Source: an uncultured bacterium (GTDB taxonomy: Bacteria; Verrucomicrobiota; Kiritimatiellia; CAIKKV01; CAITUY01). Taken from it: a stretch of 64,000 nt of DNA. The notes under the pieces are model-generated. The model ran no database searches, was not told the DNA's origin, and saw nothing but the letters and a program-made list of their open reading frames with translations. The stretch is from contig CAIVSY010000063.1 of NCBI GenBank assembly GCA_903908715.1, positions 30,113 through 94,112 on the forward strand. The letters are read 5' to 3'. Positions within the stretch are counted from its first letter, which is position 1; each line of letters begins with the position of its first letter. A program made the position numbers and the translations under genes. Shown piece after piece: positions 33,157 to 54,840 of the stretch.

Positions 33157-33199
33157 ACCCTGCCTGCGCCGGACCCTCTGAGTGCGCATACCCAGAAAA

Positions 33200-33285
33200 T
33201 GGTGCCCGGGGTGGGAGTCGAACCCACACACCCTTGCGGATAAGGGATTTTAAGTCCCTTGTGTCTGCCATTTCACCACCCGGGC
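33200..33285 (-). tRNA. tRNA-Leu (anticodon UAA)
   Basis: GCCCGGG acceptor stem, GGTGAAATGGCAGACAC D-arm, AGGGA-CTTAAAA-TCCCT anticodon arm, long variable arm, GGTTCGACTCC T-loop, encoded CCA; 86 nt. Confidence 0.97.
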
Positions 33286-33304
33286 CGGCATGGAAAAGGG
33301 GGGT

Positions 33305-33333
33305 ACTTTATCATCAAAAGCCGGGCTTCTCAA
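33305..33333 (-). promoter_or_regulatory. sigma70 promoter for tRNA-Leu
   Basis: TTGAGA-N17-TAAAGT with extended -10 TG and a C-rich discriminator (ACCCCC), 20 nt upstream of the tRNA. Confidence 0.6.
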
Positions 33334-33368
33334 CAGGTCTCGCAAGAAAACACAGGGCTCTCCCTGCA

Positions 33369-34421
33369 TCACATCTGCTTCTGGCGATAGCTCTCCACTT
33401 CCCACTGTTCAATGAATTCCCGCTGTCGATCGTCGAGGAAGCGCACACCTCCAAACGCCTCCGCCAATTGCCCGACTAAAGCACCATCCCGGGCCAGTTC
33501 AAGCGACAAGGCCGCCTTTTTAATTGTTGGCCCCGCTGCATATACGCCTTGATTCGTCACAAAAACCTGCGGTGTATATCCCCATCGCCTGCGGAATGCC
33601 TCCAAGCCGTCCGCAGTCACATCGCCCTCATAGGGAAACGCCTTGGAATATACAATGTGATCCGGGGAAATCGGCCCTTTGACCGCCTTGAAATTGCCTC
33701 CGCAGACGACCACCCAACCATCGGTCGCGACTAGTCGCTGTATTTCAGCCATGACAGTGTTCCCGGCAGCGGGCGTCACCGCCAGGCACTCCTGCAGCCC
33801 GGCGGAACGGTACACCCTTTTCAACGTTTCCATGATCTTGCCGTAGTGGCCGCGCACTTCCTCAACCGCATCCCCCGTAACAAAGACCCCATGGTTTTGC
33901 AGGAATAAGACAGCGGGAGTACGCCCCCGTTGTCCGGCGTATTCCCGAACCCTGCGGCGGACATCCATGCAAAGCGAGAAACCGGGATCCACGTAGGGCA
34001 CCCATAAAGCGTCCGGGAACAGCTTCTCACAAGCCTCGCGCCCATTGAGGGAACAGGTCATGCCGTTCACCAGCGCAGGATGCGTGTGTACAACAAAAGT
34101 CTCCTCCAGAACATCATGCAGTGGGGCCTCGACCGAAGGCCGCCCCGCCTGACCCTGCCGGACAGCCTTTTCCATCATTTCCTTGACCAGTGCTTCTCTC
34201 TTCTGAGCATCAGCCGGCACGCAGATTGAATACAGCAATCCCAGGCGTTCCCTGTCCACTTCCACGAAAGCATTGGGCTGCAACCCCTCAAGCGTTGTCC
34301 CGGAAGGCTTGACCCACAAGGAGGACCCATTCTTTGCCGACGTGTTTCCCCCGCCCCCCTTAACGTATTCCGCTGTTCCGAATTCGTGAGAAAGAAGTGT
34401 AACTGCTGTCAGAATGTCCAT
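33369..34421 (-). CDS. Class II aldolase/adducin family protein (resembles the aldolase half of RhaEW-type enzymes)
   Basis: GGGGNTSAK, KPSG, RPSVEAPLH, VVHTHP, LQNHG, PDHIVY. Confidence 0.85.
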   Translation of the reverse strand: MDILTAVTLLSHEFGTAEYVKGGGGNTSAKNGSSLWVKPSGTTLEGLQPNAFVEVDRERLGLLYSICVPADAQKREALVKEMMEKAVRQGQAGRPSVEAPLHDVLEETFVVHTHPALVNGMTCSLNGREACEKLFPDALWVPYVDPGFSLCMDVRRRVREYAGQRGRTPAVLFLQNHGVFVTGDAVEEVRGHYGKIMETLKRVYRSAGLQECLAVTPAAGNTVMAEIQRLVATDGWVVVCGGNFKAVKGPISPDHIVYSKAFPYEGDVTADGLEAFRRRWGYTPQVFVTNQGVYAAGPTIKKAALSLELARDGALVGQLAEAFGGVRFLDDRQREFIEQWEVESYRQKQM

Positions 34422-34545
34422 GTTCGATCTTTCCGCCGGTTATTTGAGAAATGCAACGGCTATGGACAATATACTCCTGGTGTCTTCCGGCAACAATCCA
34501 TTATCAATCAAGTGCCGCACAGGCACTCAAGAGGAACCAACCGGC

Positions 34546-35172
34546 CTACCGCACCCCATACACATCCAGAAGCGACGCCCCGGCCTCGTCCAGATCCCGT
34601 CCGAACGCAATCACTCCGTCCTCGTGTCCTCCCATAACAGCCACCTTCAGCCGGAGCAGGTCACTCTCGCGGTACAATCGCGCCAGTTCATAACCCATTT
34701 GCGGGGTACCATACTCGACGGAACGAGACGTTGTCGGCCATCGGTCCATCAATCGGTTCCACAAGCCCGCATGATGAACGTGGATCACCGCACCGATCCC
34801 GCAGTCAACCTGATACAGAACCGCATGTGTCATACACTCCGCGGACGGCGAGACAGATCCCTCTTCCGCCCGGTACAACACCTGGTTCCGCTCAAGGTCG
34901 CAATGCGAAACCATGCAATATTCGCGCGCCGTCAATTCGGCAACCTGCCCCGTCCGTGTTGCCGTAATCAGGAAACCGTCCGATATCCGGATGCTGAGAT
35001 TCCCGAATCCCACGCCCGCCAGCACACCCTCCCGGTATGCACCAATCATATCGAGAGCACGCAAGCGGGTACGCCAACGGTTCAATGCGGCCACATCGGC
35101 CGGATCGGCATGACCGATCCCTGCGAACAGGGCCGTGAACTTGAAATACCCTTCTCTCGGCTGCGTACCCAT
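34546..35172 (-). CDS. Class II aldolase/adducin family protein (short form)
   Basis: FGNLSIR, FLITAT, PSAECMTHAVLY, VIHVHH, GGHEDG. Confidence 0.85.
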   Translation of the reverse strand: MGTQPREGYFKFTALFAGIGHADPADVAALNRWRTRLRALDMIGAYREGVLAGVGFGNLSIRISDGFLITATRTGQVAELTAREYCMVSHCDLERNQVLYRAEEGSVSPSAECMTHAVLYQVDCGIGAVIHVHHAGLWNRLMDRWPTTSRSVEYGTPQMGYELARLYRESDLLRLKVAVMGGHEDGVIAFGRDLDEAGASLLDVYGVR

Positions 35173-35175
35173 CGC

Positions 35176-38100
35176 CTAGCCATCCAGATTCGCCTTGCGG
35201 CGTGGCGACTTGGGTGTCCCCACCAGCGATGGGAACTTGATACTCGGGGAATGCCGGTGGAACTCCTGCACACTGCATACTTCAATCCGTCCGGATTCAC
35301 GCATGGCGCATATTCCGGTCAAAGCCGCCCGCATGCCGTGGACGGTTGTCGTGATCGGGATATTCCGGATGACCGCATGCGACCTCATCTTGACTTCGTC
35401 AATCTTCGGCGCTGGCCCGCTGGATGGTGTGTTGACAATCCATTGCACACGCTTTTCCTCAATCAGGTCGACAACATTCGGGCGCCCCTCGGAGATCCGG
35501 AACAGGGCGTGTGTCGGGATCCCGTTCGACCACAAGAGCGTACTTGTCCCCACCGTGGCAAAAATCGTGAACCCCATCTCGTGCAGCTGACGGGCCATGG
35601 GCAGGATCTCAGCCTTATCCTCGTCGCGAACGCTGAGGAAAACATTTCCTTTCGCGGGGAGCGGATTCCCGGCCGCAATCTGGCTCTTGAGGAATGCCAT
35701 CCCGCTGTTGCTGTCAATCCCCATCACTTCGCCGGTGGACTTCATTTCCGGCGTCAGGATCACATCCACTCCCGGGAAACGGGCAAACGGAAACACCGCC
35801 TCCTTTACCGAAAAATGCCGCGGCACGATCTCCGTTGTGTACCCCATATCCTTGAGTTTGAACCCCGCCATTACCAAAGCCGCCAGCTTGGCTAGTGGCA
35901 CCCCTATTGCCTTGCTGACGAATGGAACTGTCCGCGACGCCCGCGGATTCACCTCCAATACATACACCTGCCCGTCTTTGACGGCATACTGCACATTCAT
36001 CAAACCCATGACCCCGAGCTCTCCGGCCATCAGAATCGTACAACGCCGGATCTCCTCCTTGACAGAGTCCGGCAAGGTCGGCGGCGGTATGGTACAGGCA
36101 CTATCGCCGGAATGAATGCCGGCCAGCTCGACGTGCTCCATGATAGACCCTATGACCGTCGTCTGCCCGTCGGAAATGCAATCCACGTCCACTTCGACAG
36201 CGTTCTCAAGATACCGGTCCACCAGAACCGGCCGCTTCTCGGAAACCTCGACCGCTTCGGCCATGTACTTTCGCAGCATTTCACGGTCATAGACGATCAC
36301 CATGGCCCGGCCCCCAAGAACAAAGGAAGGCCTCATCAGCACAGGATACCCGATTCGCTCGGCGATCTTCTCCGCCTGCTCCACCGTGGTGGCCATGCCG
36401 TTGTCCGGCTGCTTCAATCCGAGTTTACGAATCATCGCCTGGAAAAGATCACGATCCTCGGCGACCTCAATGCTTGCCGGTTTCGTACCGATAATATTGA
36501 CCCCGCTGGCTTCAAGATCCCGCGCCAGGTTCAAGGGCGTCTGCCCTCCGAACTGCACAATCGCCCCCCAGCATTCCTCCCGCCGGTAGATATGCAGGAC
36601 GTCTTCCAGCGTTAACGGTTCAAAATACAGGCGATCACTGGTGTCGTAGTCCGTGGACACCGTTTCGGGGTTGCTGTTAACCATGATGGTCTCGAACCCC
36701 GCCTCGTGTAGCGCAAAGGCCGCGTGCACACAGCAGTAATCAAACTCAATCCCCTGCCCGATCCGGTTGGGCCCGCCGCCGAGAATCATGACCTTCTTCT
36801 TTGTGCTGGCCCGGCTCTCATCCAATTCCCCGTAGGTTGAATAGAAATACGGGGTGAAAGCGGGAAATTCGGCGGCACAGGTATCGACCAATCCGTAGTT
36901 CGGCAGCAGGTTCATGACCTCCCGCGCGTCCCGGACCTCCGCCTCCTTGCACCCCAACAGCCACGCAAGTTGCCGATCCGAATACCCCATCTCCTTTGCC
37001 TGCCGGAAGAGCGCGGCATTCTTCCTCATGCCATCCAGCCCGCACGCCCCGCGGATTTCGTCCTCGTACGCCGCCAGTTCCTCCATATGGCGGAGAAACC
37101 ATGGATCAATTCCGGTGATTTCATGAACACGCTCGACGCTCCATCCCCTCTTGAACGCCGCTCGAATCACGAACACACGCATGGCGTTCGGCCGTTCCAG
37201 CTCCGACTCCAACTTCGCGTCGCTCATTCCCTCAAATGGGCTGTCCTTGCCATCCGCGCCAAAGCCCGCACGCCCCACCTCCAGGGAACGGCACGCCTTC
37301 TGGAAGGACTGCTTGAATGTCCGACCAATACTCATGGCCTCCCCGACGGATTTCATCTGCGTCCCTAGCCGACTGTCCACTCCAGGGAATTTCTCAAATG
37401 CAAAACGGGGCATCTTGGTGACGACATAATCGATGGCCGGCTCAAAGCATGCGGGCGTCTCACGGGTAATGTCATTCCTCAACTCGTCAAGCGTGTAGCC
37501 TACCGCCAGCTTGGCGGCAATCTTGGCAATCGGAAATCCCGTGGCCTTTGACGCCAGCGCACTGGACCGCGAAACGCGCGGATTCATCTCTATGATCACC
37601 ATCCGCCCGTTACAGGGATTCAAAGCCCATTGCACATTGGATCCGCCTGTATCCACCCCGATCTCCCGCATCACGGCAAGGGAGGCATCCCGCATCCGCT
37701 GATATTCGCGGTCGGTCAAGGTTTGCGCGGGAGCGACCGTAATGCTGTCGCCCGTATGTACGCCCATCGGATCGAGGTTCTCAATCGAACAGACAATCAC
37801 ACAGTTATCCTTGCGGTCCCGCATGACCTCCAGTTCAAATTCCTTCCACCCCAGGACCGACTCCTCGATGAGTACTTCTGAAGTGGGACTGTAGAACAGG
37901 CCGCGACGGACGATTTCCTCGAACTCCCTTGCGTCCCGGGCAATACCGCCTCCCGTTCCGCCCAGCGTGAATCCCGGACGGATGACAACCGGCCAGGACC
38001 CGATCATCTCGCGTACCCTGACCGCCTCTTCCATCGAGTGTGCGGCACCGCTGACCGGAAGATCCATCCCGATCTTCTGCATGGCAGCCTTGAATAGCGC

Positions 38101-38487
38101 CCGGTCCTCCGCCTTGCGGATAATGTCGGCACGGGCCCCGATCATCTCCACCCCGTAACGGTTCAGTATCCCCGAATCATGCAGTTCCACCCCCAGATTC
38201 AACGCGGTCTGACCACCCAGAGTCGGCAACAACGCGTCCGGTCTCTCGCGACGGATAATCTCGCCAAGGATCTCCGCCTTCAGGGGCTCAATATACGTCC
38301 GATCGGCGAACTCCGGATCCGTCATGATGGTGGCCGGATTACTGTTCACCAGAACCAGTTCATACCCTTCCTCCTTCAGCGCCTTGCACGCCTGGACCCC
38401 GGAATAATCAAATTCACAGGCTTGCCCGATGACAATCGGGCCAGACCCTATCAGCATGATCTTCTTTATGTCGGTTCTCTTTGGCAT
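35176..38487 (-). CDS. carB: Carbamoyl-phosphate synthase large subunit
   Basis: [28 protein letters not shown], duplicated ATP-grasp domains, [20 protein letters not shown]-like C-terminus. Confidence 0.98.
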
Positions 38488-38496
38488 ACGTATACC

Positions 38497-40167
38497 CTAC
38501 GATTTGACAGGCCGTGCGGGCCGCCTGGATTTCCTGGCCTCATTCTTCCCCTGCCCGCGCAAGGCCGCACCCACGAAACCCCGGAATAAGGGATGAGACT
38601 GCAATGGCGTCGACTGGAACTCCGGATGGAACTGGCATGCGACAAACCACGGATGATCCGCCAACTCAACAATCTCCACGAGATCACGCCCGGGACAGAT
38701 TCCGGAAAAGATCATCCCGGCCCGCTGCATCTTCTCGCGGAAACGGTTGTTGAACTCATACCGGTGACGATGCCGTTCACTGATCTCCCCTCTCCCGTAA
38801 GCCTTTCCCGCCACACTATCGGACTGGATCGCACAAGGATAGGCCCCCAAACGCATGGTCCCGCCCTTCTCAGTGACTTTCTTCTGCTCAACCATCATGT
38901 CGATCACAGGATACGCCGTAGCAGGAGCAAATTCAGTGCTGTTGGCTCCCGCCATCCCGCAAACATTACGGGCAAACTCAATCGTGGCACACTGCATGCC
39001 CAGGCAGATCCCGAAAAACGGGATCCGGTTGACCCGCGCATACTGAATCGTCTGGATCTTTCCCTCGATCCCTCGATCCCCGAAACCGCCCGGAACCAGA
39101 ATCCCGCTGACCCCAGCCAGTAATGCCGCAGCACCGGCTTTCTCGACCTCTTCCGATTCCACCATGCGGATCCGCACACCAACGCCATTGGCAATACCGC
39201 CGTGCGTCAACGCCTCATAAATACTCTTGTAGGAATCCCTTAAGGAAATGTACTTGCCCACCACTCCGATTTCAACCAGCCCCTGCGGCGGCGTGATGAG
39301 GGTTGCCACCATTCGCTTCCACTCGGAGAGTTCCAGCGGGTTCACATGCAGGCCAAGCATCTCCAGGATGTAGACGTCCACATCCTGCCTCGCAAGCTCA
39401 ATCGGAACCTCGTAAATCGAATGCTCGACATCCTTTTCCTCGATCACCTTGTTCTCATCGACATCGCAGAATAACGCCAGTTTGGCCTTATGCTCGGCTG
39501 TCATCGAATGCTCGCACCGGCAGATCAGGACATCGGGCACAATGCCGATGGTCCGGAGTATCCCCACGGACTGCTGCGACGGCTTGGTTTTCATTTCGCC
39601 GGCCGCCTTGATGTACGGCACCAGTGTCAGGTGAATGAACAGACCGTTCCTGCGCCCAATTTCGTGGCGATATTGCCGAATCGCCTCCAGGAAGGGTAGC
39701 GATTCGATGTCTCCGACCGTTCCACCGATCTCCGTGATGGCAATATCCACATCCTCGCCGTCCAGCGAACGGATGGCGGCCTTGATCTCATCGGTGATAT
39801 GCGGAATCACCTGAACGGTCTTGCCCAGATAACCGCCCTCTCTTTCGCGCGTGATCACCGCCCGGTATATGCTTCCGGAGGTGAAGTTGCTGTTCCGTGT
39901 GCAGGGAATGCCGGTGAAACGCTCGTAATGTCCCAGATCCAGATCCGTCTCCGCCCCGTCAACCGTAACATAGACCTCGCCATGCTGGTACGGCGACATC
40001 GTCCCTGGATCCACGTTGAGATAAGGATCCAGTTTCTGGAGCTTGACCCGATAGCCACGCTGGCGCAACAGAAGCGCCAAGGCAGCGGATGTCAAGCCCT
40101 TGCCCAGCGAGGAAACCACACCACCCGTGATAAAGACATGCCTCGTCGGTCCATTACGCGTGGCCAT
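38497..40167 (-). CDS. pyrG: CTP synthase
   Basis: [51 protein letters not shown]. Confidence 0.98.
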
Positions 40168-40188
40168 GATTTCCCTCCCTCTTCATCC

Positions 40189-41622
40189 TTACTCCAGATT
40201 CAATAGCAGAGTTGCCGTCTCCAACGCATCCTTACCCGTCATCCGGCTGACATCAAGCGGGTAATGCCCCGAAAAACACGCCGTGCAGTACCTCCCCGCA
40301 TTGGAGAAAGGCGTAAGCAATCCCTCCAGGCTCAAATATCCGAGACTGTCCGCCCCCGTGAACCGACGTGTCTCCTCCACACTGTGGCGCGCAGCAATCA
40401 ATTCATCCCTCGTCGCAAAGTCGATCCCGAAAAAACAGGGGTGTATCGTCGGCGGGCACGATATCCTGAGGTGGATTTCCTTTGCACCCGCATCCCGCAA
40501 GGCACTGACCCGGCGGCGCGATGTCGTTCCCCGTATAATGGAATCATCCACCACGACCACCCGCTTGCCCTTGACCACGTTCCCGATGACCGCCAACTTC
40601 ATATCCACACTGCGGGCCCGTTCCTCCGCCGAAGGCATGATAAAGGTCCGCCCCACATAATGGTTCCGCATGAAACCGAAATCCAACGGGATCCCGCTCT
40701 GCCGCGAATATCCCAGGGCGGCTGAATTCCCGCTGTCCGGAACGGATGTAACCAAATCCGCCTCCACCGGATGTTCCTGCGCCAACCGCATGCCAAGCCG
40801 GACACGGGTTTCATGCACATTCTGACCAAACAACAGGCTGTCCGGACGCGCAAAATACACATGCTCGAACACGCACTGCGAGACGCCCGCACCGCCTCCT
40901 TCGGCAAACCAGCTTGAATGCATTCCGCTGGCATCCACCACCACCAGTTCGCCCGGCTCAACATCCCGGATATACTCGGCGCCAACCTGCGTCAGGGCAC
41001 AGGTTTCGCTCGCAAACAAGTATCCCGACCCCAAGCGTCCAATGGATAGCGGCTTGAACCCCAATGGGTCGCGCGCCGCCATCAGGCAGTCCTTCGTCAT
41101 CAACAGAAACGAAAACGCGCCCTTGAGTTCACTCAGGGCGCGTGCAACCCGTCTCGGACGGGCCCGGAACATCGGATCGGCAAGCAAATGGACCAATACC
41201 TCGCTGTCGGTGCTGGTCTGGAAGATCGCCCCCGACTCCTGGTACATCCGCCGCAAGGATTGGGCATTAACCAGATTCCCGTTGTGGGCAATGGCCCAAA
41301 TGCCGTCACTGCACTCCACCACCAGAGGTTGGACATTCTGGATGCGGGGGGAACCCGTGGTGGAATAACGCACATGCCCGATGCCTAGATGCCCGGGCAA
41401 CTGCCGGATGCGATCCGCTGGAAAAACATCGTTTACAAGGCCGAGCCCCTTGATGGACCGTACCTGCGTTCCATCCGAGGTCACAATACCCGCACTCTCC
41501 TGCCCCCGGTGCTGCAAGGCAAACAACCCGGCATGAATCAACGGGGCTACGTCCGGTATGCCGTAGACTCCGCAGACTCCGCACGCCTCCCGTGGCCGAT
41601 CTTCGAACGCATTGCCATTCAT
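40189..41622 (-). CDS. purF: Amidophosphoribosyltransferase (propeptide / Fe-S type)
   Basis: REACG, LQHRGQESAG, GHVRYST, AHNGN, VPDSG, VVVDDSIIRGTT, YCTACF. Confidence 0.97.
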   Translation of the reverse strand: MNGNAFEDRPREACGVCGVYGIPDVAPLIHAGLFALQHRGQESAGIVTSDGTQVRSIKGLGLVNDVFPADRIRQLPGHLGIGHVRYSTTGSPRIQNVQPLVVECSDGIWAIAHNGNLVNAQSLRRMYQESGAIFQTSTDSEVLVHLLADPMFRARPRRVARALSELKGAFSFLLMTKDCLMAARDPLGFKPLSIGRLGSGYLFASETCALTQVGAEYIRDVEPGELVVVDASGMHSSWFAEGGGAGVSQCVFEHVYFARPDSLLFGQNVHETRVRLGMRLAQEHPVEADLVTSVPDSGNSAALGYSRQSGIPLDFGFMRNHYVGRTFIMPSAEERARSVDMKLAVIGNVVKGKRVVVVDDSIIRGTTSRRRVSALRDAGAKEIHLRISCPPTIHPCFFGIDFATRDELIAARHSVEETRRFTGADSLGYLSLEGLLTPFSNAGRYCTACFSGHYPLDVSRMTGKDALETATLLLNLE

Positions 41623-41677
41623 AGTTGCGCCCTCTCTCCGCACGGGGCGGCATGTTTACACCGTCCCACGCCACTAC

Positions 41678-43144
41678 TCAAGAACATTCTTCCCCGCCGG
41701 ACTCGCCGGAAATCCCGCGGGAATCCAGATAAGCCTCTATCCCGGCCGCAGCCTGCCGCCCGTCACGAATCGCCCTCACCACCAGGGATGCTCCCATCGA
41801 CATGTCGCCCGAAACAAAAATCCCCGGAACATTGGTCATGTTGGCGGCATCCCTCCAGATTACGCCCCCCGTTCCCGTACGAAGCCCGAGGTCTGCAATC
41901 ATGCGGTTCGGCTTCGGACCGGTAAACCCCATCGCCAGCAGAACCAGATCGGCCTTCCATTCGCGGTCCGATCCCGGCACCTCACGCATGACAGGCCGCA
42001 CGGCCCCGGTCGGTGTCGCCCACTCGACATCCACCGTGCAAACCGCCGTCACCCTGCCGTTGGCCCCCTTGAACTTCTTTGTGGCCACAGCCCAATGCCG
42101 CTCGCAGCCTTCCTTGTGACTGCTGGATATACGCATCACGTACGGCCACATCGGCCACGGCGTCGACTCCGAACGCACGGGCGGCGGCTGGGGCAGAATC
42201 TCCACCTGCTTCACCTGGACCGCCCCCTGCCGGATCGCGGTCCCCACGCAATCGGATCCGGTGTCACCACCGCCGATTACAAGCACAGACTTGCCATCCG
42301 CAAGGATCGCACGATCCGGGTCAACGGACTCACCTGCTAAACGTCGATTCTGCTGTGTCAGATAGTCCATGGCGAAGTGGATTCCCGCCAGTTCCCGCCC
42401 AGGAACCGCCAGATCCCGCGGTTGTCTCGCGCCCGCACACAGGCAGATGGCATCAAAGCGGCCCCGCAGGTAGTGATAGGACAGATCCTCGCCAACCCGC
42501 ACACCCATTTCGAAGTCGACACCCTCCGCCTCCATCAGCGCGATCCTCCGGTCCACAATAACCTTCTCGAGCTTGAACTCCGGAATGCCATAACGCAGGA
42601 TTCCGCCCGCCCGGGCTGCGCTGTCGTACACAACCACCCGGAACCCGCGACGGTTGAGCGTATCGGCCACCGCCAATCCCGCAGGACCCGAACCGATAAC
42701 CGCCACACGCTCCCCCCGCCGTACAGCTGGCGGCCGCGGCTTCACCAATCCCAGTTCAAAGGCGCGTTCAATAATGGCCAGTTCGATCTGCCGGATGGTC
42801 ACCGGCTCGCGGTTAATCCCGAGCACACAGGAACCCTCGCAGGGGGCCGGGCAAATGCGCCCGGTGAACTCCGGGAAGTTGTTGGTTGCCAACAGCACCT
42901 CCAACGCATCCCGCCATCGGCCGTGATAAACATGGTCATTCCATTCCGGAATCACATTCTGCAAGGGACAACCACAGCCATGGCAAAAAGGAGTCCCGCA
43001 GTCCATACAACGAGCGGCCTGCTCCGTGATCCCGTCCTCCGCGAACCGCAGTTCCACGGCACGATAGTCCCGTACCCGGTCCTGGACCGGGCGATAGCCC
43101 GGTTCCTTCCTGCCGTATTCCATGAACCCCGTGGGCTTACCCAT
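41678..43144 (-). CDS. gltD: Glutamate synthase small subunit
   Basis: QAARCMDCGTPFC, NNFPEFTGRICPAPCE, GSGPAGL, GGGDTGSDC, GASLVV.AI. Confidence 0.97.
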   Translation of the reverse strand: MGKPTGFMEYGRKEPGYRPVQDRVRDYRAVELRFAEDGITEQAARCMDCGTPFCHGCGCPLQNVIPEWNDHVYHGRWRDALEVLLATNNFPEFTGRICPAPCEGSCVLGINREPVTIRQIELAIIERAFELGLVKPRPPAVRRGERVAVIGSGPAGLAVADTLNRRGFRVVVYDSAARAGGILRYGIPEFKLEKVIVDRRIALMEAEGVDFEMGVRVGEDLSYHYLRGRFDAICLCAGARQPRDLAVPGRELAGIHFAMDYLTQQNRRLAGESVDPDRAILADGKSVLVIGGGDTGSDCVGTAIRQGAVQVKQVEILPQPPPVRSESTPWPMWPYVMRISSSHKEGCERHWAVATKKFKGANGRVTAVCTVDVEWATPTGAVRPVMREVPGSDREWKADLVLLAMGFTGPKPNRMIADLGLRTGTGGVIWRDAANMTNVPGIFVSGDMSMGASLVVRAIRDGRQAAAGIEAYLDSRGISGESGGEECS

Positions 43145-46100
43145 GGACCACCTCCGCCCGCTCCGTCGCCTCGTCCTCGCGCATCATCTTTCCCAGCACG
43201 CGCCGGTATTCCATTGGAAAGACCTTTACAAAATAGGGCAGATGCTCCTCCCACCCGTCCAGAATCCGTCGCGCCTTGCGACTACCCGTGTATTCCATAT
43301 GCCGCCGGAGCATGGACCGGATCTCCTCCTGGTCCTTCGGGTCGGATACCATTTCAAGGTCAACCATATCCAAATTGCACCGGCTGTCGAAACTCCTGTC
43401 CTCGTCATAGACATAGGCCAGACCGCCGCTCATTCCAGCCGCGAAATTAACCCCCGTCCGTCCGAGGACAATGACACGTCCGCCTGTCATGTATTCGCAT
43501 CCATGGTCTCCCACTCCTTCCACGACCGCATGAGCTCCGCTGTTCCGTATGGCAAATCGCTCACCAGCGCGTCCGCAAATATACATCTCCCCGCAGGTGG
43601 CCCCGTAAAGAAGAACATTCCCCGCGATCACGTTCTCCGAAGGGTCGAAACCGGCCGATCCACCCGTCTTGAGAATAATCCGGCCTCCGGACAGCCCCTT
43701 GCCCACATAATCGTTGGCCTCACCCTCAAGAACCATCGTCATCCCCCGAACACACCACGCACCGAAACTCTGCCCCGCCGCACCTTGGAAGACAAGGGTC
43801 ACCGTATCCTCAGGGAGACCCTTGTGACCATGGCGACGGGCAATCTCCCCGGCAATCATGGTCCCCACCGTCCTATTCACATTGCGTATCGGAGAGGATA
43901 TCTGGACGGGATTTCCCCCTTCGATCGACTCCCGAACCCGTGGCATCAAGGCAAGATCCAGCGCCTGATCCAGTTCGTGATCCTGCCGCTCCATGCACCG
44001 GACCGGTCCCCCGGTTTGAGGGCGATAGAGAATACCGGAATAATCAAGCCCCCTCGCCTTCCAAAAGGCAATGGCATCGTTCATCTCCAGCAGGTCAGAA
44101 CGTCCCACCATCTCATCCACCGTGCGGATTCCCAGACTGGCCATGATTCCACGGGCCTCTTCAGCCACATAGGTCAGGAATCTCTGCAGGTACTCCGGCT
44201 TGCCAGCAAAACGCTTGCGCAATTCGGGATCCTGTGTCGCCACACCCACCGGACATGTATTGCTGTGGCACTTTCGCATCATGACACAACCCATCACCAC
44301 CAATGCCGTGGTGGCGAACCCGAATTCCTCGGCCCCGAGCAGAGCGGCAACAACCACATCACGTCCGGTCTTGATCTGGCCATCCGTCTGCAACCGGACC
44401 CGGCCACGCAGGTTATTCAGGACCAGCGTCTGCTGGGTTTCGGCCAATCCAAGCTCCCAGGGAACCCCCGCATGCTTGATGGAGGAGAGCGGAGATGCCC
44501 CTGTGCCCCCATCATAACCGCTGATGAGGATCATGTCCGCCTTAGCCTTTGCCACACCGGCCGCAATCGTGCCCACTCCCAGTTCCGAAACCAGCTTGAC
44601 CGAGACCCGGGCTCCACTGTTGATGTTCTTGAGGTCATAAATCAGCTGCTTGATGTCCTCGATCGAATAGATGTCATGGTGCGGCGGCGGCGAAATCAAG
44701 GTCACACCCGGCGTGGAATGACGGACACGGCCGATCTCATCGTCGACCTTATGCCCCGGCAACTGCCCGCCCTCCCCCGGCTTTGCTCCCTGGGCAATCT
44801 TGATCTGTAATTCCCGTGCATGGACGCAGTATTCCGCCGTTACACCGAACCGTCCGCTGGCAACCTGCTTAATGGCGCTGCAACGGCTGTCTCCGTTTGG
44901 AAGCGGAATATACCGGCCTGGATCCTCCCCACCCTCCCCGCTATTGCTCATGCCGCCCAAACGGTTCATGGCAATAGCAATCGTCTCATGCGCCTCACGG
45001 CTGATGGACCCGTAGGACATGGCGCCCGTGACAAATCGCTTGACGATCGCAGCCGCCGGTTCAACCTCCTCGACAGGCACGGGCAAGGCAGTCTTGAACC
45101 GGAACATTCCCCGAAGGGTGAACTGCCGCTCCGCCTGCTCATTGATCAACCGCGCGTATTCACGATACAAGGCAACATCATCCTGGCGGGTTGCCTGCTG
45201 CAGTTTGCTGATGGCATCCGGACTCCAGAGATGCCGCTCCCCATCCACCCGGTAGCGGTAATGGCCACCCGCAGTCAATAATTCCGGGGCATTCAAATGT
45301 CCTGCCCAAGCCTCGGTATGGCGCGCACAGGCCTCCGCGGCAATGCCGTCCAAGCCAATCCCTCCCACACGTGACGCAGTCCCCTCAAAATAGCGGTCAA
45401 CCACCTCGCGCTTCAGGCCGACGGCCTCAAATACCTGGGCGCTCCGGTAACTGCGCAGGGTGGAAATCCCCATCTTGGACATGACTTTCCGCAATCCCTC
45501 CTGTAGCGAAGCCACATAGTTTTCCAATGCCCTCGCCACACCGATATCCGCGCTTAACTCGCGCCGCTTGGCCATCGAAGCGACAATTTCAAACGCCATA
45601 TAGGGGTTCACGGCTGTCGCGCCATACCCCAGCAGCAGCGCCATATGCATCACCTCACGCGCATCCCCTGTCTCGAGCAGGATACCCACACCCGTTCTGC
45701 GGCCATCACGAATCAGCCGGCGATTGACCGCTGATGTCGCCAGAAGCGACGGAATCGGAACCTCGTCCACAGTGAGGCCCCGATCGCTGAGGATGATCAG
45801 GTTCGTGCCCTCACGCACCGCCTGCTCCACCTCGTTCCCGAGCCGCTCAAGGGCCGCCTCAAGGCGCATCCCCCCTTCCCCACGGGGAAACCCGATACGA
45901 AACGCCTTTACGCTGAAATCAGGAAGATTCAGGTCCCGGATCCGCGCCAGGTCCTCGTTGGAAAGAATGGGATGCCGTAACTTGATCAAGCGCGCATGCT
46001 GGGGAACTTCCGAGAGGATATTGGATGGATTCCCGATGAACGTCATCAGCGACATCACCAGTTCTTCGCGAATCGGATCAATCGGCGGATTGGTCACCTG

Positions 46101-47690
46101 CGCAAACATCTGCTTGAAATACGAGAACAGCAACTGCGGCTGATCCGAAAAAACCGCCAGCGGCGTGTCCGTCCCCATCGAACCCACCGGCTCATGCGCC
46201 TTGGAAGCCATCGGTTCGAGTATCATCTGCAGGTCCTCACGCGTATAACCGAACAAACGCTCCCGCCGCAACAAGGTCGATTCATCCGGATTCACCGGGG
46301 CCATTGCCTCGAACAAGCCTTGCACAAGGACCTTGTTTTCCTCCACCCAGCGCCGATAGGGTTGTTGACGCACCACCCGGCTCTTGATCTCACGGTCCTT
46401 GATGACCCGCCCGCTTTCGAAATCCACCAACAGCATCTGGCCGGGGCGCAAGGCTCCTTTCTCCTTGACCCGATCGACGGGAATGTCCAGCACCCCTGCC
46501 TCGGACGCCATGACCATGAAACCATCCCGTGTGAGAGTGTAGCGAGCGGGCCGTAGGCCATTGCGATCCAATAGCGTGCCGACCCGTAATCCATCGGTGA
46601 ACGCAACCGTTGCCGGACCATCCCAGGGCTCCATGAGGCCCGCGTGATACTCAAAAAAACCCTTCTGGTCAGGCCCCACGGGATATTTCGCGCCCCATGC
46701 TTCGGGTATGAGCATCATCATGGCATGCGGCATGGACCGGCCGGCCGCTGTCAACATCTCCAGCGCATTATCCAGGCAGGCGGAATCACTACCACCCGGG
46801 TCAATGATTGGCAGCAACTTCCGCATGTCGTCACCGAAAAGCAACGAGTGCATCTGCCGCTCGCGGGCCCGCATCTGGTTAAGATTGCCACGCAGGGTAT
46901 TAATCTCGCCGTTATGCGCCAGCATCCTGAACGGCTGCGAAAGTTCCCAGGAAGGAAAGGTGTTGGTACTGTAACGCTGGTGGAGAACCGCAACCGCACT
47001 CTGCACACGTTGGTCATTCAGTTCCGTGTAGAACCCCGACACCTGCCCCCCCATGAGCAATCCCTTGTAAACCACCGTCCGGGCAGAAAAGCTGACCACA
47101 TAAAAGCGCTCCCTTGGCCCCAGCAGTTCCGCAACCTTGCGCTGGACAATCTTGCGGACAACCAGCAGCTTGCGATCCAACGCCTCACCCGTCAGGCCAT
47201 TCCCCCCCACAAAAACCTGCATGACCAAAGGGCAATCCCGGCGGGCAAGTTCCCCCAAAATCGCCTGATCCGTGGGGACTTCCCGCCAACCCAGCAGGGT
47301 AACCCCTTCCACACGAAGCACAGACTCCATGACGGCCATACATTGTTTGCGAACCGCAGTCTGGGGCACAAACAACATGCCAACTCCATAGGCACCTCCA
47401 TCCGGCAAGGCGAACCCCAGTCGCTCCGCCTCCTCCCGGTAAAAGGCGTCCGGAACCTGAATCAGGATTCCAGCACCATCCCCCGTCGTCTGATCCCCTC
47501 CCACAGCCCCGCGGTGAAGCAGGTTCTTCAGGACCTCAATACCGTCCCGTATGATTGCATGACTGGGTTTCCCCTCGATATTCGCGACAAACCCCACCCC
47601 GCAACTGTCGTGTTCCTGAAGCGGGTCATACAATCCCTGGGCCGGAGGCAAGCCGTACTGGCCACCCTCCTTGCTGGATACATCCGTCAT
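43137..47690 (-). CDS. gltB: Glutamate synthase large subunit
   Basis: EHDSCGVGF (Ntn Cys), HQRYSTNT, AHNGEIN, GAKPGEGGQLPG, CVMMRKCHSNTCPVG, EGVGDHGCEYMTGG. Confidence 0.98.
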   Translation of the reverse strand: MTDVSSKEGGQYGLPPAQGLYDPLQEHDSCGVGFVANIEGKPSHAIIRDGIEVLKNLLHRGAVGGDQTTGDGAGILIQVPDAFYREEAERLGFALPDGGAYGVGMLFVPQTAVRKQCMAVMESVLRVEGVTLLGWREVPTDQAILGELARRDCPLVMQVFVGGNGLTGEALDRKLLVVRKIVQRKVAELLGPRERFYVVSFSARTVVYKGLLMGGQVSGFYTELNDQRVQSAVAVLHQRYSTNTFPSWELSQPFRMLAHNGEINTLRGNLNQMRARERQMHSLLFGDDMRKLLPIIDPGGSDSACLDNALEMLTAAGRSMPHAMMMLIPEAWGAKYPVGPDQKGFFEYHAGLMEPWDGPATVAFTDGLRVGTLLDRNGLRPARYTLTRDGFMVMASEAGVLDIPVDRVKEKGALRPGQMLLVDFESGRVIKDREIKSRVVRQQPYRRWVEENKVLVQGLFEAMAPVNPDESTLLRRERLFGYTREDLQMILEPMASKAHEPVGSMGTDTPLAVFSDQPQLLFSYFKQMFAQVTNPPIDPIREELVMSLMTFIGNPSNILSEVPQHARLIKLRHPILSNEDLARIRDLNLPDFSVKAFRIGFPRGEGGMRLEAALERLGNEVEQAVREGTNLIILSDRGLTVDEVPIPSLLATSAVNRRLIRDGRRTGVGILLETGDAREVMHMALLLGYGATAVNPYMAFEIVASMAKRRELSADIGVARALENYVASLQEGLRKVMSKMGISTLRSYRSAQVFEAVGLKREVVDRYFEGTASRVGGIGLDGIAAEACARHTEAWAGHLNAPELLTAGGHYRYRVDGERHLWSPDAISKLQQATRQDDVALYREYARLINEQAERQFTLRGMFRFKTALPVPVEEVEPAAAIVKRFVTGAMSYGSISREAHETIAIAMNRLGGMSNSGEGGEDPGRYIPLPNGDSRCSAIKQVASGRFGVTAEYCVHARELQIKIAQGAKPGEGGQLPGHKVDDEIGRVRHSTPGVTLISPPPHHDIYSIEDIKQLIYDLKNINSGARVSVKLVSELGVGTIAAGVAKAKADMILISGYDGGTGASPLSSIKHAGVPWELGLAETQQTLVLNNLRGRVRLQTDGQIKTGRDVVVAALLGAEEFGFATTALVVMGCVMMRKCHSNTCPVGVATQDPELRKRFAGKPEYLQRFLTYVAEEARGIMASLGIRTVDEMVGRSDLLEMNDAIAFWKARGLDYSGILYRPQTGGPVRCMERQDHELDQALDLALMPRVRESIEGGNPVQISSPIRNVNRTVGTMIAGEIARRHGHKGLPEDTVTLVFQGAAGQSFGAWCVRGMTMVLEGEANDYVGKGLSGGRIILKTGGSAGFDPSENVIAGNVLLYGATCGEMYICGRAGERFAIRNSGAHAVVEGVGDHGCEYMTGGRVIVLGRTGVNFAAGMSGGLAYVYDEDRSFDSRCNLDMVDLEMVSDPKDQEEIRSMLRRHMEYTGSRKARRILDGWEEHLPYFVKVFPMEYRRVLGKMMREDEATERAEVVHG

Positions 47691-47714
47691 GGCTAGCGTC
47701 TCCTGAATAGCTTA

Positions 47715-47738
47715 GGGCGCCCGGTAAACCGGGCGCCC
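47715..47738. repeat. Perfect GC-rich inverted repeat between glnA and gltB
   Basis: GGGCGCCCGGT-AA-ACCGGGCGCCC; no U-tract on the minus strand. Confidence 0.75.
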
Positions 47739-47780
47739 ATTCATGCGATTCCCAAACCGTTGCGGTCTGCCATTCAACCG

Positions 47781-49904
47781 TCATCGGTAGAACAGCATGT
47801 CCGCATACGTCGGCAGCGGCCAGTAACCCGATCCCATCACGGGTTCAACGGCATCCGCAACCCTGCGCAATGCCGACATGGCAGGCATCACACCATCCCG
47901 GAAGGAGACCGCCCTTTCCGGAGCGTGTTTTTCCGACATAGCCTTGCCAACGGCCAGTTCCAGATCATCGATCGCCGTCGCCAGCTCAGCGGCACTCCCG
48001 TTCAGGCGCCTCAGCAATGAAGCCTGCGCCGCCGGTGTCTCCCCCGCCGCCTCAACCGCATTCATCCCGACTGCCACATCCCCGGCAAACTTGACCACCG
48101 CCGGCAGGATCTCCCGACGCGCCATCTGCAACATCGTCCTGGCCTCGATCGCAATGGTCTTGGCGTAGTTCTCCAGCAGGATCTCGTGCCGGGCCTTGAT
48201 CTCACCCTTGGTCAACGTGCCGTGCTTGACGAGGACGGCCACGTTGTCCTTTTCCTGCATCGCGTTGATACCGTCCACACAATTGCGGATGTTCGGGAGA
48301 CCCCGCCGGCCTGCCTCCTCCACCCAGGCAGCGGAATAGTTGTCGCCGTTGAACACTATCGCCTCATGTTCCTTGGCGTACTCCTGCAACAGCTTCTGGA
48401 CGCGCGAATTGACGTCCTTCACCCCCTCGAGGTTGTCGGCAATCTCCATCAACGTATGGGCCACAATCGTGTTCAGGACGAAATTCGGCCCCGAAAGCGA
48501 CTGCGAGGAACCCGCCATGCGGAACTCGAACTTGTTGCCGGTGAATGCGAACGGCGATGTACGGTTCCGGTCCGTCGTGTCCTTGGGGATCGCAGGCAGA
48601 TGCGAAACCCCAAGCATCAACCGCCCACCCTGCTTGGACCGGTTCGCTCCACCTTCCCGCAACTGGGATAGAATATCCGTCAACTGATCCCCGAGAAAAA
48701 TCGACACAATCGCCGGCGGAGCCTCGTTGGCACCCAACCGGTGGTCGTTGCCCGGCGTTGCCACGGTCGCCCGCAACAGGCTGGAATACTTATGCACCGC
48801 CCGAATCACCGCCATCAGGAATACCAGAAACTGCATGTTGTCGTGAGGGGTGCTTCCCGGATTCAGCAGGTTGATCCCGTCATCGGTCCCGATCGACCAG
48901 TTATTGTGCTTCCCGGATCCGTTCACACCAGCAAAAGGCTTCTCGTGGAGCAGGCAGATGAACCCATGCCTGCGAGCTGTACGCTGCAGAACTTCCATCG
49001 TCAGCTGATTATGATCCACACCGATGTTGACGGTTGCGAAAACCGGGGCAATCTCATGCTGGGCCGGAGCCACCTCGTTATGCTGGGTCTTCGCCAGGAC
49101 CCCCAGTTTCCACAGCTCCTCGTTCAGATCCGCCATGAAGGACGCCACCCGCTCATGCAGAGTACCGAAGTACTGGTCCTCCATCTCCTGCCCTTTCGGT
49201 GGCGGCGCCCCGAACAGGGAGCGCCCGGCAAAACGCAGATCCGCCCGGCGCTCCACAAACTGACGATCGATCAGGAAATACTCCTGTTCCGCACCCAAAG
49301 TGGCGGTCACCCTTCGGCTCGTCGTATTCCCCAATGCCCGCAGCACGCGCGTGGCCTGGTTATTTAACGCCTCCATAGACCGTAACAAAGGGGTCTTTTT
49401 GTCCAGCGCCTCCCCCGTGTAGGACGCAAAGGATGTGGGAATGAAAAGCGTGATGTTCTTCCCGTCCCGCTTGATGAATACCGGCGACGTGCAATCCCAT
49501 ACCGTGTATCCACGCGCCTCAAAAGTCGCACGAATGCCGCCGGACGGGAACGAGGATGCATCCGGCTCGCCCTGCGTCAATTCCTTGCCGCTGAATTCCA
49601 TCATGATCCGGCCGTCGCTCGTCGGCGAAATGAATGAATCATGCTTCTCAGCCGTGATCCCGGTCATGGGCTGGAACCAGTGACAGAAATGCGTAGCCCC
49701 CTTTTCCACCGCCCAGTCCTTCATGGCATTCGCCACCACGTCAGCCACCGCGGGATCCAACTCCCGCCCTTCCTCAATCGTAGCCTTGAGCCTGCGATAT
49801 ATGTTCTTCGGCAACCGCTCCCTCATGACCGCATCGTTGAAAACATTCGAACCGAAAACCTCGGGAAGCCCCGACTCTTGCGTTGTCTCATTTCCGTTTT
49901 TCAT
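47781..49904 (-). CDS. glnA: Glutamine synthetase type III
   Basis: [88 protein letters not shown] before ATG 49904; an in-frame ATG also lies at 49976. Confidence 0.96.
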
Positions 49905-50021
49905 ACTGGCTCCTTCTTGCATCACAACTGCGTACGTGTCCCCTAACTTATACACCAACCCAACCCGGTTGACCATGAGGTTTCCTGACCGGATCGCCTA
50001 AAAAAGCACGATGGATGACTG

Positions 50022-50037
50022 AGCAACAAGCGTGCCA
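50022..50037 (-). promoter_or_regulatory. sigma54 (-24/-12) promoter for glnA-gltBD
   Basis: Minus strand TGGCAC-GCTTG-TTGCT, a full match to TGGCAC-N5-TTGCW (GG-N10-GC). Confidence 0.85.
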
Positions 50038-50100
50038 GATATTAAAACGAGCAAAATCCACCCGAAAATCGATACAAGAGCGGGCAGCTAACGAATCAGA

Positions 50101-50150
50101 TGCTACAGATTTGTAACACAACCGCTCTCTTTGCTTCATTTTTGAATGCA
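50101..50150. promoter_or_regulatory. Candidate enhancer (activator-binding) palindromes
   Basis: TGCTACA-GATT-TGTAACA (50101-50118) and TGCTTCA-TTTT-TGAATGCA (50132-50150), between the two sigma54 promoters. Confidence 0.45.
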
Positions 50151-50277
50151 CGTGCAAACATCACTAATGGAAATCGGAGGGATAACAGGTTGAGTCCCAT
50201 GCAGAATTGCCGCTTCGGACGCTAACGCCCTCTGGAAATTGACCTCCAAAGGATTTCATGAGGGGAAACCGTTGCAT

Positions 50278-50293
50278 TGGCACAACTCTTGCA
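50278..50293 (+). promoter_or_regulatory. sigma54 (-24/-12) promoter for the PEP-synthase-like gene
   Basis: TGGCAC-AACTC-TTGCA, full consensus, 33 nt upstream of ATG 50326. Confidence 0.85.
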
Positions 50294-50325
50294 TAGACCT
50301 CCTGTAACGAACCGAAAGAACAGCT

Positions 50326-52950
50326 ATGAAAGGAAAACCGTCCACCCGAAACAAGCTCCCCCACTTCAGCACAGGATTACCTTCGCTCGATTCCACCCTG
50401 AACGGCCTTCTACCAGGGGATAACGTCGTATGGCAAGTCGACGAAATCAACGAGTACCGCCCGTTCGTTGACCGATTCATCGATTACAGCCGTACACTGG
50501 ATACCCCGATCGTCTACTTCCGGTTTGCCAGCCATCGCCCCTTGATTCCGGAAAATTCAGGCGTGGAAATCCATCCCGTGGAACCCGGCATGGGTTTTGA
50601 ACCCTTCGTCGGGGAAATCCTGGATGTGATCGAGCAGAAGGGTCGTGGCGCTTTGTACGTGTTCGACAGTTTGTCCGAATTGGCGGCTGACTGGTACAGC
50701 GATCGCATGCTGGGGAATTTCTTCATGATCACATGCCCCTTCCTGTTCCAACTCGACACCATCACGTACTTCGCACTGCTCAGCAATCATCATTCCTTCC
50801 ACGCCATCGACAGCATCCACCAGACAGCGCAGGTCGTTATCAATGTACACCGGAACCGGGAGCGGGTATTCATTCATCCACTAAAAGTGGAGAAGCGGTC
50901 TTCACCAACTCTGTACATGCTGCACGAATGGGAACGGGATGATTCCTTCATACCTGTCAGCGCGAGTACCACAATCGCCGAAATCATGGCCAGGGCTCCT
51001 CAGCCCTGGCTGGATTTTGCGGCAACCCGTCCCGGCATCTGGATGCAAACCGTCCTCCGGGCCCGCAAATCCATGGAGTCCTCCTTCGGCGGTTCCGGAT
51101 CACTGAAGGAAACCCAGGAATCCTTTCAACGTCTCCTGCGTGGCGCCATCACACGGGACGCCCGATTCCTGCCTCTGACCCGAAGATACTTCGACCTGCC
51201 GGATCTGCTTGCCATCATCCAGCGGATGATTGGCACAGGCCTCATTGGCGGCAAGGCACTCGGCATGCTGCTGGCCCGCGCCATTATCCGCAAGCATTCC
51301 CCGGAACTGCATGCTCGCATGGAGCCGCATGACTCTTTCTATATCGGCTCGGACGTCTTCTACACCTACCTCGTTCAAAACGGTTGCTGGGAACTGAGAC
51401 GCAAGGCCACCGACTTGAATTTCCTCATGGAGCAGAACGAGGCAACACAACGGAAGCTTATGTCCGGTTCCTTTCCAGACTATATCCGACGGCAGTTTTC
51501 GGAAATGCTGGACTACTTCGGGCAGGCACCCATCATTGTCCGCTCAAGTTCACTGCTCGAGGACAGCTACGGGAATGCCTTCTCCGGGAAGTATGAGACG
51601 GTCTTTTGCGCCAACCAGGGCAACCCTGCGCAACGCCTTGAATCGTTCATGCAGGCTGTACGCACCGTGTATGCCAGCACATTGAGCCCCGAAGCCCTCT
51701 CCTACAGGCACCAGCGCGGCCTTCTCGATCGGGACGAACAAATGTCCCTCCTGGTCCAACGGGTTTCCGGTGACCGCCACGGCACCAATTACTTCCCCCA
51801 GGTTGCCGGCGTTGGCTTCTCCTTCAATCCTTTCGTCTGGAATGAGGATATTGACCCGAAAGCCGGCATGATCCGGTTGGTCTTTGGTCTCGGCACCCGC
51901 GCCGTGGACCGGACAGGCGATGACTACACCCGCCTGATCGCCCTGAATGCGCCCGAAAAGAGACCCGAAGGCGCCCCGGGTGACTCGATCCGCTATTCGC
52001 AGCATAATGTCGATGTCCTCGACCTCTCCGAAAATCAGCTCAAGGAGAAATCGATCGCCGAGGTACTCCATGATCTTCCTGGAAGATTCCCTCAGGACCT
52101 GTTCTTTGACCGGCACGGCACACCCATCGCATCAGGGCATGAGTTCTGGCACACCACCTTCAACCGCATGATCCGCGAGACGCCATTTGTGGCCGACATG
52201 CGAGCCGTGCTGGAAATCGTTCAGGATGCCTATGAGCATCCTGTCGATATCGAATTCACCGCAAACTTCTCCAGCGCTTCGGATTACCGCATCAATCTGG
52301 TACAATGCCGGCCATTCCAGGTCCGCATCACGGGAAGCAGCGACCGCCTGCGTTCTCCGTCCACCCTCCGCCGGCAGGATATCCTCCTCGAAAGCGGCGG
52401 ACCGATCATAGGGCAAAGCGCATCAACCCCGGTCGACCGGCTGGTGCTCGTTGTGCCTGCGGTATATGGAAGAATGACCGTCAACGAACGATATGCCGTG
52501 GCGCGCGCCATAGGCAAACTGAACCGCCTGGCTGCATCCGGGCCAGCCATGACGCTCATGCTAGTCGGTCCTGGGCGTTGGGCCACCACCACACCCGCGC
52601 TGGGCATCCCCGTCTCCTTTGCTGAAATAAATGCAGCATCGATCGTCTGTGAGATTGCCGCCATGCACGAGGGCTTGATCCCGGACGTCTCGCTGGGCAC
52701 CCATTTCTTTAACGACCTCGTTGAAATGAACATGCTGTACCTTGCGGTTGCTCCTGACCGCAAGGGGCACAACGTGAACAGTTCCCTGATCACCAGCTTA
52801 CCGAACAAACTGACAACCCTCCTGCCACAGTCATCAGGCTTGGAGCAAGTCCTCTGGGTGGTCGACAGCGTGGATATCGCGGGCGGTGCGCGACTGTATC
52901 TGCATGCCGACAGCTTCAAGCAAAAAGCCGTTGTCTACCTTTCCCGATAA
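50326..52950 (+). CDS. PEP/pyruvate-binding (PPDK_N ATP-grasp) domain protein with a degenerate RecA/KaiC-like N-terminus; not a canonical PEP synthase
   Basis: STGLPSLD..LNGL..GDNVV and YVFDSLS (KaiC-like); IGGKA, VRSSSLLED...FSGKYET, LLVQRV, VAGVGFS, GLGTRAV, DIEF, VQCRP (ATP-grasp); C-terminal GPGRW...SLGTHFF. No TIM-barrel PEP domain is recognisable. Confidence 0.85.
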   Translation: MKGKPSTRNKLPHFSTGLPSLDSTLNGLLPGDNVVWQVDEINEYRPFVDRFIDYSRTLDTPIVYFRFASHRPLIPENSGVEIHPVEPGMGFEPFVGEILDVIEQKGRGALYVFDSLSELAADWYSDRMLGNFFMITCPFLFQLDTITYFALLSNHHSFHAIDSIHQTAQVVINVHRNRERVFIHPLKVEKRSSPTLYMLHEWERDDSFIPVSASTTIAEIMARAPQPWLDFAATRPGIWMQTVLRARKSMESSFGGSGSLKETQESFQRLLRGAITRDARFLPLTRRYFDLPDLLAIIQRMIGTGLIGGKALGMLLARAIIRKHSPELHARMEPHDSFYIGSDVFYTYLVQNGCWELRRKATDLNFLMEQNEATQRKLMSGSFPDYIRRQFSEMLDYFGQAPIIVRSSSLLEDSYGNAFSGKYETVFCANQGNPAQRLESFMQAVRTVYASTLSPEALSYRHQRGLLDRDEQMSLLVQRVSGDRHGTNYFPQVAGVGFSFNPFVWNEDIDPKAGMIRLVFGLGTRAVDRTGDDYTRLIALNAPEKRPEGAPGDSIRYSQHNVDVLDLSENQLKEKSIAEVLHDLPGRFPQDLFFDRHGTPIASGHEFWHTTFNRMIRETPFVADMRAVLEIVQDAYEHPVDIEFTANFSSASDYRINLVQCRPFQVRITGSSDRLRSPSTLRRQDILLESGGPIIGQSASTPVDRLVLVVPAVYGRMTVNERYAVARAIGKLNRLAASGPAMTLMLVGPGRWATTTPALGIPVSFAEINAASIVCEIAAMHEGLIPDVSLGTHFFNDLVEMNMLYLAVAPDRKGHNVNSSLITSLPNKLTTLLPQSSGLEQVLWVVDSVDIAGGARLYLHADSFKQKAVVYLSR

Positions 52951-54820: not shown

Positions 54821-54840
54821 TCTCTGTTCCTTCCCAAGAA

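Follow-up and report, generated by a model that had tools for sequence, protein, structure and literature searches.

The stretch of DNA analysed here, referred to as the window, comprises 64,000 nucleotides (positions 30,113 to 94,112, forward strand) of contig CAIVSY010000063.1 from an uncultured bacterium of the Kiritimatiellia (GenBank assembly GCA_903908715.1, a 3.05-Mb metagenome-assembled genome, MAG, that is 91% complete), and it carries a cluster that joins the gene for glutamine synthetase to genes for enzymes of glutamate, purine, CTP and carbamoyl-phosphate synthesis. Six full-length genes on the minus strand follow one another in the order glnA-gltB-gltD-purF-pyrG-carB. They encode a type III glutamine synthetase (GSIII, glnA/glnN, here also glnA3; 47781-49904, 707 aa), the large (gltB, 43137-47690) and small (gltD, 41678-43144) subunits of glutamate synthase (GOGAT), amidophosphoribosyltransferase (purF, 40189-41622), CTP synthase (pyrG, 38497-40167) and the large subunit of carbamoyl-phosphate synthase (carB, 35176-38487). 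From glnA to carB, the junctions measure 90, -8, 55, 21 and 9 nt, and the arrangement given in a first-pass annotation, a model's reading of the sequence alone, was thereby reproduced exactly. Its gene list, correct in these six members, had overlooked a seventh co-oriented gene that begins 3 nt past carB (34546-35172, minus) and encodes a class II aldolase/adducin-like protein of 208 aa (Pfam Aldolase_II, 6e-11; no NCBIfam match). A gene of this type is also found 3' of carB in one relative (L052). It is probably the last gene of the unit, because a weak hairpin and then a TTGTTG-N17-TATATT promoter motif for the next gene come after it.

Gene identities rest on NCBIfam equivalog or subfamily models with scores far over the cutoffs, i.e., NF008730 for gltB (1745 bits, in addition to four GOGAT Pfam domains), TIGR01317 for gltD (628 bits), TIGR01134 for purF (521 bits), NF003792 for pyrG (817 bits) and NF003671 for carB (1666 bits). 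GSIII was assigned via three Pfam domains (PF12437, PF00120 and PF18318; GSIII_N 1e-79, Gln-synt_C-ter 6e-39, Gln-synt_C 1e-18). The protein stays below the cutoff of NCBIfam TIGR03105, a model built on shorter proteins of ~435 aa. It is the sole glutamine synthetase-like match in the genome, and its true start is the ATG at 49904, which has an AAGGAG ribosome-binding site in front of it, and not the ATG at 49976 of the longest open reading frame. The deduced PurF protein carries a 13-residue propeptide that is followed by Cys. Its gene is present as a single canonical copy, a PurF-like paralog encoded on contig C98 reaching 181 bits vs. a cutoff of 350, and pyrG is likewise single-copy in the genome. 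The 8-nt overlap of gltB and gltD is kept in nearly all relatives, and the 21-nt gap between purF and pyrG contains a GGAGGG ribosome-binding site. The distance of 55 nt between gltD and purF applies to the purF ATG at 41622 and is reduced to 34 nt with the alternative GTG at 41643.

Upstream of glnA, the element TGGCACgcttgTTGC (50023..50037, minus) is located 118 nt before the GSIII start codon and matches the -24/-12 consensus for sigma54 (GG-N10-GC with TGGCAC-N5-TTGC) with zero mismatches. The genome encodes rpoN (419 bits, over the cutoff), and genes for enhancer-binding proteins, i.e., sigma54 activators, flank the cluster on both sides (53066-54901 and 30569-31912). In 25 of 30 related loci a TGGCAY-N5-NTGC site is found upstream of glnA3, compared with a background of 0.07 per 300 nt. 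The sigma54 promoter that the earlier annotation had placed before glnA is supported by a consensus site, by the presence of rpoN and by its retention among relatives. Sigma54-like motifs are not present before gltB, pyrG, carB or the aldolase-like gene in the window. A second sigma54 site (50278-50292, plus) is divergent and faces a PPDK_N-like gene (50326-52950, plus) that is itself oriented away from glnA. This gene travels with the cluster in six relatives (L040, L056, L075, L081, L140 and L146), and among relatives it is situated beside purF, gltB or glnA, depending on the genome. A gene for a PII protein resides on contig C43 of the same genome.

The 90-nt gap between glnA and gltB harbors a GC-rich hairpin, GGGCGCCCGG-TTTA-CCGGGCGCCC (47715..47738, minus), which starts 43 nt past the glnA stop codon and has a perfect 10-bp GC stem but no T-tract. 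On the basis of sequence and fold it is a candidate attenuator or a candidate stabiliser of an RNA 3' end. Canonical T-tract terminators occur elsewhere in the same genome. All family members checked possess a strong hairpin at the same spot 3' of glnA, in most cases with a T-tract behind it (L033, L036, L037, L039, L040, L041, L043, L044, L045 and L083). In the genus designated g2 the whole glnA-gltB gap amounts to only ~63-71 nt; it is so short that gltB would be reachable there only by read-through of the hairpin, which would therefore act as an intercistronic attenuator. The 90-nt gap in the window contains no sigma70-like promoter motif, and a dual-hexaloop motif as found in ANTAR-type leaders is not evident in it; a genome search for the ANTAR domain (PF03861) gave no match, control genomes being equally silent. 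Hairpins, with or without a T-tract, were not found at any other junction inside the cluster. An Rfam search (E<=1) over positions 33000-51000 returned only a tRNA and no riboswitch or leader RNA, and nothing exceeded the gathering threshold in seven related loci. The tRNA gene (33203-33285, minus, 59 bits) has a near-canonical promoter, TTGAGA-N17-TAAAGT, at 33333-33305, indicating that canonical sigma70 promoters are in use in this genome. A dispersed repeat as the origin of the glnA-gltB hairpin was ruled out, its sequence being unique genome-wide. Separately, a repeated hairpin resembling REP elements, CCCTCTCCC-loop-GGGAGAGGG with TCGGGGTGA behind it, is scattered over many contigs of the genome (e.g., C111:24735, C98:17863, C50:17286 and C3:18618).

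A different kind of signal is located between gltD and purF, where hairpins are absent. A promoter-like module (41636..41681, minus) consists of a -35 hexamer TTGAGT (41681-41676) that overlaps the gltD stop codon, a 17-nt spacer, a -10 hexamer TAAACA (41658-41653) and the leader CCCCGTGCGGAG (41647-41636). It is the only relaxed sigma70-type match at any junction of the cluster (background 0.064 per 100 nt), and no such internal motifs were detected before gltB, pyrG, carB or the aldolase-like gene. The module is homologous in position and sequence to one found in relatives: in four genera (g1 to g4) CTTGnnn-N17-TAnnnn and then CCCCGTGYGGAG precede purF, both where gltD lies upstream and where the adjoining DNA is unrelated. 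In an alignment of these modules (A1), CTTG and the T of the -10 element are invariant and the next A is nearly so, all at a spacing of 17 nt. In two loci (L154 and L157) the module follows directly upon a T-tract terminator, so that the purF promoter must be situated within the module in these cases. The motif CCCCGKGYGGAG has one occurrence in the window. The search for internal sigma70 promoters that had been suggested along with the initial annotation thus yielded one motif before purF and none before pyrG, and the assumption that purF lacks an independent promoter appears not to hold in view of a putative promoter conserved directly upstream of the gene in four genera.

Two further observations concern the same region. 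The C-terminal tail of GltD, ~10 residues in length (41678-41710, minus), does not align with the proteins of relatives; the reading frame extends here into a former intergenic region and ends at a stop codon within the -35-like sequence that belongs to the purF module. Moreover, CCCCGTG is found behind a TTG-N17-TA motif not only before purF (41636-41647, minus) but also before a second carB gene on contig C43, and 11 such modules exist genome-wide. A role of CCCCGTG as leader of a shared nucleotide regulon was considered and rejected, as relatives do not share the element before their second carB, while before purF it is kept in four genera.

Conservation of gene order was studied in 20-kb stretches around glnA3 in relatives and in the 10-kb flanks of the 80 best PurF relatives from public genomes. 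Ten genomes carry all six genes in this order (the window, L035, L036, L037, L038, L046, L060, L066, L067 and L083); they represent several genera of the family as well as other families of the Kiritimatiellia, and their proteins share only 50-75% identity. No junction in L046 is longer than 16 nt, overlaps included. Other relatives feature glnA-gltBD alone, which is the only part of the cluster in many of them, purF-pyrG-carB alone, gltBD-purF-pyrG-carB, glnA-purF-carB or glnA-purF-pyrG-carB. In the genera g2 and g3 two blocks, glnA-gltBD and purF-pyrG-carB, occur apart from each other or at a distance of 14-18 kb on one contig. A large sister clade carries purF-gltB-gltD. When the loci were placed on a PurF tree, purF was found directly beside gltBD in 39 of 63 scorable loci from the Planctomycetes-Verrucomicrobia-Chlamydiae (PVC) group, 18 times downstream of gltD and 21 times upstream of gltB, vs. 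none of 13 outgroup loci, and clustering of the linkage labels on the tree greatly exceeded that of shuffled labels. In L060 (Kiritimatiellae MAG JAQUMN010000016) a gap of 750 nt between glnA and gltB contains an open reading frame (L060:2893-3638) that we take to be nadE-like on the basis of an SGGxDS motif read by eye; should this be correct, another enzyme using amide nitrogen would be located inside the same cluster. The clustering of the glutamine producer with glutamine consumers is real, non-random and conserved. Synteny in relatives, proposed as a check when the cluster was first noted, speaks for the gene order, with ten genomes retaining it in full.

In the sister clade with purF-gltB-gltD, a GG-N10-GC sigma54-like element is located at a fixed distance upstream of purF in 19 of 23 purF-first loci (e.g., TGGAACGATTCTAGCT and TGGCATGAGGAGTGCT; background 0.033 per 150 nt). 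In these organisms purF and GOGAT seem to form a sigma54-type unit with purF at its head, which agrees with the general idea of the initial annotation for the wider lineage. In close relatives with a stand-alone purF-pyrG-carB block a sigma54 site before purF was looked for and is absent; within the family the link between sigma54 and purF would therefore be established only via read-through. The recurrence of the cluster order, the persistence of purF next to gltBD in rearranged variants and the sigma54-like units headed by purF in the sister clade make it plausible that an entry step of purine synthesis is subject to nitrogen- and sigma54-dependent control in this lineage.

The carB gene of the cluster encodes the synthetase subunit of carbamoyl-phosphate synthase and not the glutamine-binding one, and the usual adjacency of carA and carB is not found in the cluster. 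The only copy of carA in the genome resides on contig C84 (3.7 kb), 4 nt upstream of guaA. Contig C43 carries another full-length carB (C43:62002-65202; L158:5000-8203, minus) that shares 51% identity with the copy in the cluster, and the family as a whole retains the two paralogs. The inclusion of carbamoyl-phosphate synthase among the glutamine users of the cluster is weakened by the location of carA elsewhere and the existence of the second carB. On contig C84 (L159:1-2134, minus) carA is followed by a guaA gene truncated at the end of the contig; this constitutes a second pairing of glutamine amidotransferase genes from different pathways, and an integron-integrase gene lies just upstream of it. 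In relatives from genus g2 the leader of the second carB features a promoter and, behind it, a possible pyrimidine-type attenuator in the form of a T-run hairpin (GGGGTTTTTTCCCG).

As this case illustrates, a single operon cannot be deduced from short intergenic distances and one strong upstream promoter. From the genes, gaps, motifs and conservation in relatives, all of which were observed directly, we infer how the cluster may be transcribed, and on balance we lean towards a conserved, glutamine-centred cluster that is organized in nested units and does not form one simple operon. The sigma54 promoter at 50037-50023 would drive glnA, presumably under nitrogen limitation and via a nearby enhancer-binding protein. 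The GC hairpin past glnA would end or stabilise most transcripts, and a fraction would read on into gltB and gltD, as suggested by the missing T-tract and by the lack of a detectable promoter in the 90-nt gap. The two GOGAT genes would be translationally coupled through their overlap. Because there is no terminator between gltD and purF, read-through would be expected to go on into purF, pyrG, carB and the aldolase-like gene, for which the putative sigma70-type promoter TTGAGT-N17-TAAACA at the gltD-purF junction would maintain a basal level of expression while the sigma54 promoter is inactive. As a net result, nitrogen would control glutamine synthetase and GOGAT and would add a supplement to a constitutive level of the purine, CTP and carbamoyl-phosphate steps. 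One sigma54 promoter for all six genes, as originally suggested, gains from the conserved clustering and the consensus sigma54 site; on the other side stand the module before purF, the conserved hairpin past glnA and the placement of carA outside the cluster.

Several observations do not fit easily with nested units. The -10 hexamer TAAACA of the purF module is devoid of the usually conserved final T, and the base at this last position varies among relatives; the module could be the site of a regulator instead of a promoter. In L046, L066, L083 and genus g5, as well as in lineages farther away, the module is missing and gltD and purF are separated by 0-17 nt, which we read as true gltD-purF fusions, and the architecture clearly differs between lineages. 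Genus g4 possesses a good sigma70 promoter, TTGCGG-N17-TATAAT, between the glnA terminator and gltB, and in view of this case gltB in the window may have a promoter of unrecognised type. Finally, a hairpin without T-tract may not terminate transcription at all, which would favor a single operon, or may bring about full termination by another route.

Such a single operon would extend from glnA to carB, including the aldolase-like gene, and would depend on the sigma54 promoter only, so that nitrogen control via sigma54 would be strict for all entry steps into purine, CTP and carbamoyl-phosphate synthesis. The short gaps, the absence of a T-tract from any hairpin inside the cluster, including the one past glnA, the fusions just mentioned and the sigma54-type units headed by purF in the sister clade would all agree with it. 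Yet a conserved promoter-like module is positioned exactly at the gltD-purF junction, the hairpin past glnA is conserved across the family, and purF and pyrG are single-copy genes needed under all nitrogen regimes, so that we consider strict sigma54 dependence unlikely. At the other extreme, the cluster could consist of three independent units without meaningful read-through, namely glnA with its sigma54 promoter and an end at the hairpin, gltBD with an unrecognised promoter and purF-pyrG-carB-aldolase with its own promoter, adjacency then reflecting selection for co-location or shared ancestry and not co-transcription. This is the picture offered by genus g4, in which every block is equipped with separate signals (a T-tract terminator past glnA, the sigma70 promoter before gltB and the purF module), by the separate or distant blocks of g2 and g3 and by relatives whose stand-alone purF-pyrG-carB lacks a sigma54 site before purF. 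In the window, however, the 90-nt gap shows no promoter-like motif, the hairpin has no T-tract, no hairpin is present between gltD and purF, and junctions in other lineages are tight or overlapping; full independence of the three units therefore appears improbable as well. That two ordinary operons became neighbours by chance and that their adjacency has no functional meaning could be argued from the many relatives in which the blocks lie apart. We regard this as very unlikely, since adjacency persists between genomes in spite of protein identities of only 50-70%, recurs in varied orders (gltBD-purF, purF-gltBD, glnA-purF-carB, glnA-purF-pyrG-carB and, with the open reading frame identified by eye as nadE-like, glnA-nadE-gltBD-purF) and is distributed non-randomly on the PurF tree, with linkage labels clustered beyond shuffled labels and no linkage in any of the 13 outgroup loci.

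Nucleotide end products regulate purF, pyrG and carAB in textbook bacteria, where these genes reside in operons apart from those for nitrogen assimilation. A full-text literature search retrieved neither a description of a cluster such as the one reported here nor one of nitrogen regulation in Kiritimatiellia. The cluster is a nitrogen-assimilation operon extended by genes of amidotransferase pathways; it is real, conserved and not of the textbook type. A farther-reaching proposal, which we advance tentatively and rate as possible rather than probable, is that Kiritimatiellia and Lentisphaeria, perhaps along with the wider PVC group and neighbouring phyla, possess a gene order organized around glutamine, in which genes for the initial reactions of purine, CTP and carbamoyl-phosphate formation have been physically recruited to the unit of glutamine synthetase and GOGAT and in which nitrogen signalling via sigma54 directly sets the capacity for spending glutamine amide nitrogen. 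Sigma54 control would then be full where junctions are fused or purF comes first in the unit and would be a supplement to a basal promoter in the genome studied here. If confirmed at the level of transcription, nitrogen status would gate the synthesis of nucleotide precursors via operon structure in a phylum that has few cultured members and has received little study, and the cluster would constitute a clear case of operons organized by shared substrate and not by pathway.

The arrangement resembles known systems in part. The first three genes with their sigma54 promoter correspond to a normal nitrogen-assimilation unit as known from glutamine synthetase-GOGAT operons (glnA/glnN-gltBD) under sigma54/NtrC-type control, whereas the addition of purF, pyrG and carB extends the unit by initial or key reactions of three further pathways. 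With regard to signals, the enterobacterial glnALG (glnA-ntrBC) operon is similar in that glnA is preceded by a sigma54 promoter, glnAp2, and followed by a terminator-type hairpin with partial read-through and a downstream sigma70 promoter. In contrast to that operon, the downstream genes in the window are metabolic (GOGAT, PurF, PyrG and CarB) and do not encode the regulators NtrB and NtrC, the glutamine synthetase is of type III instead of type I, and the hairpin lacks a T-tract. The aro-trp-his supraoperon of Bacillus subtilis likewise unites genes of different pathways in one co-oriented row with nested units, internal promoters and read-through; it differs from the cluster described here in that the latter has a sigma54-type upstream promoter and a shared substrate, the amide nitrogen of glutamine, as its organising principle.

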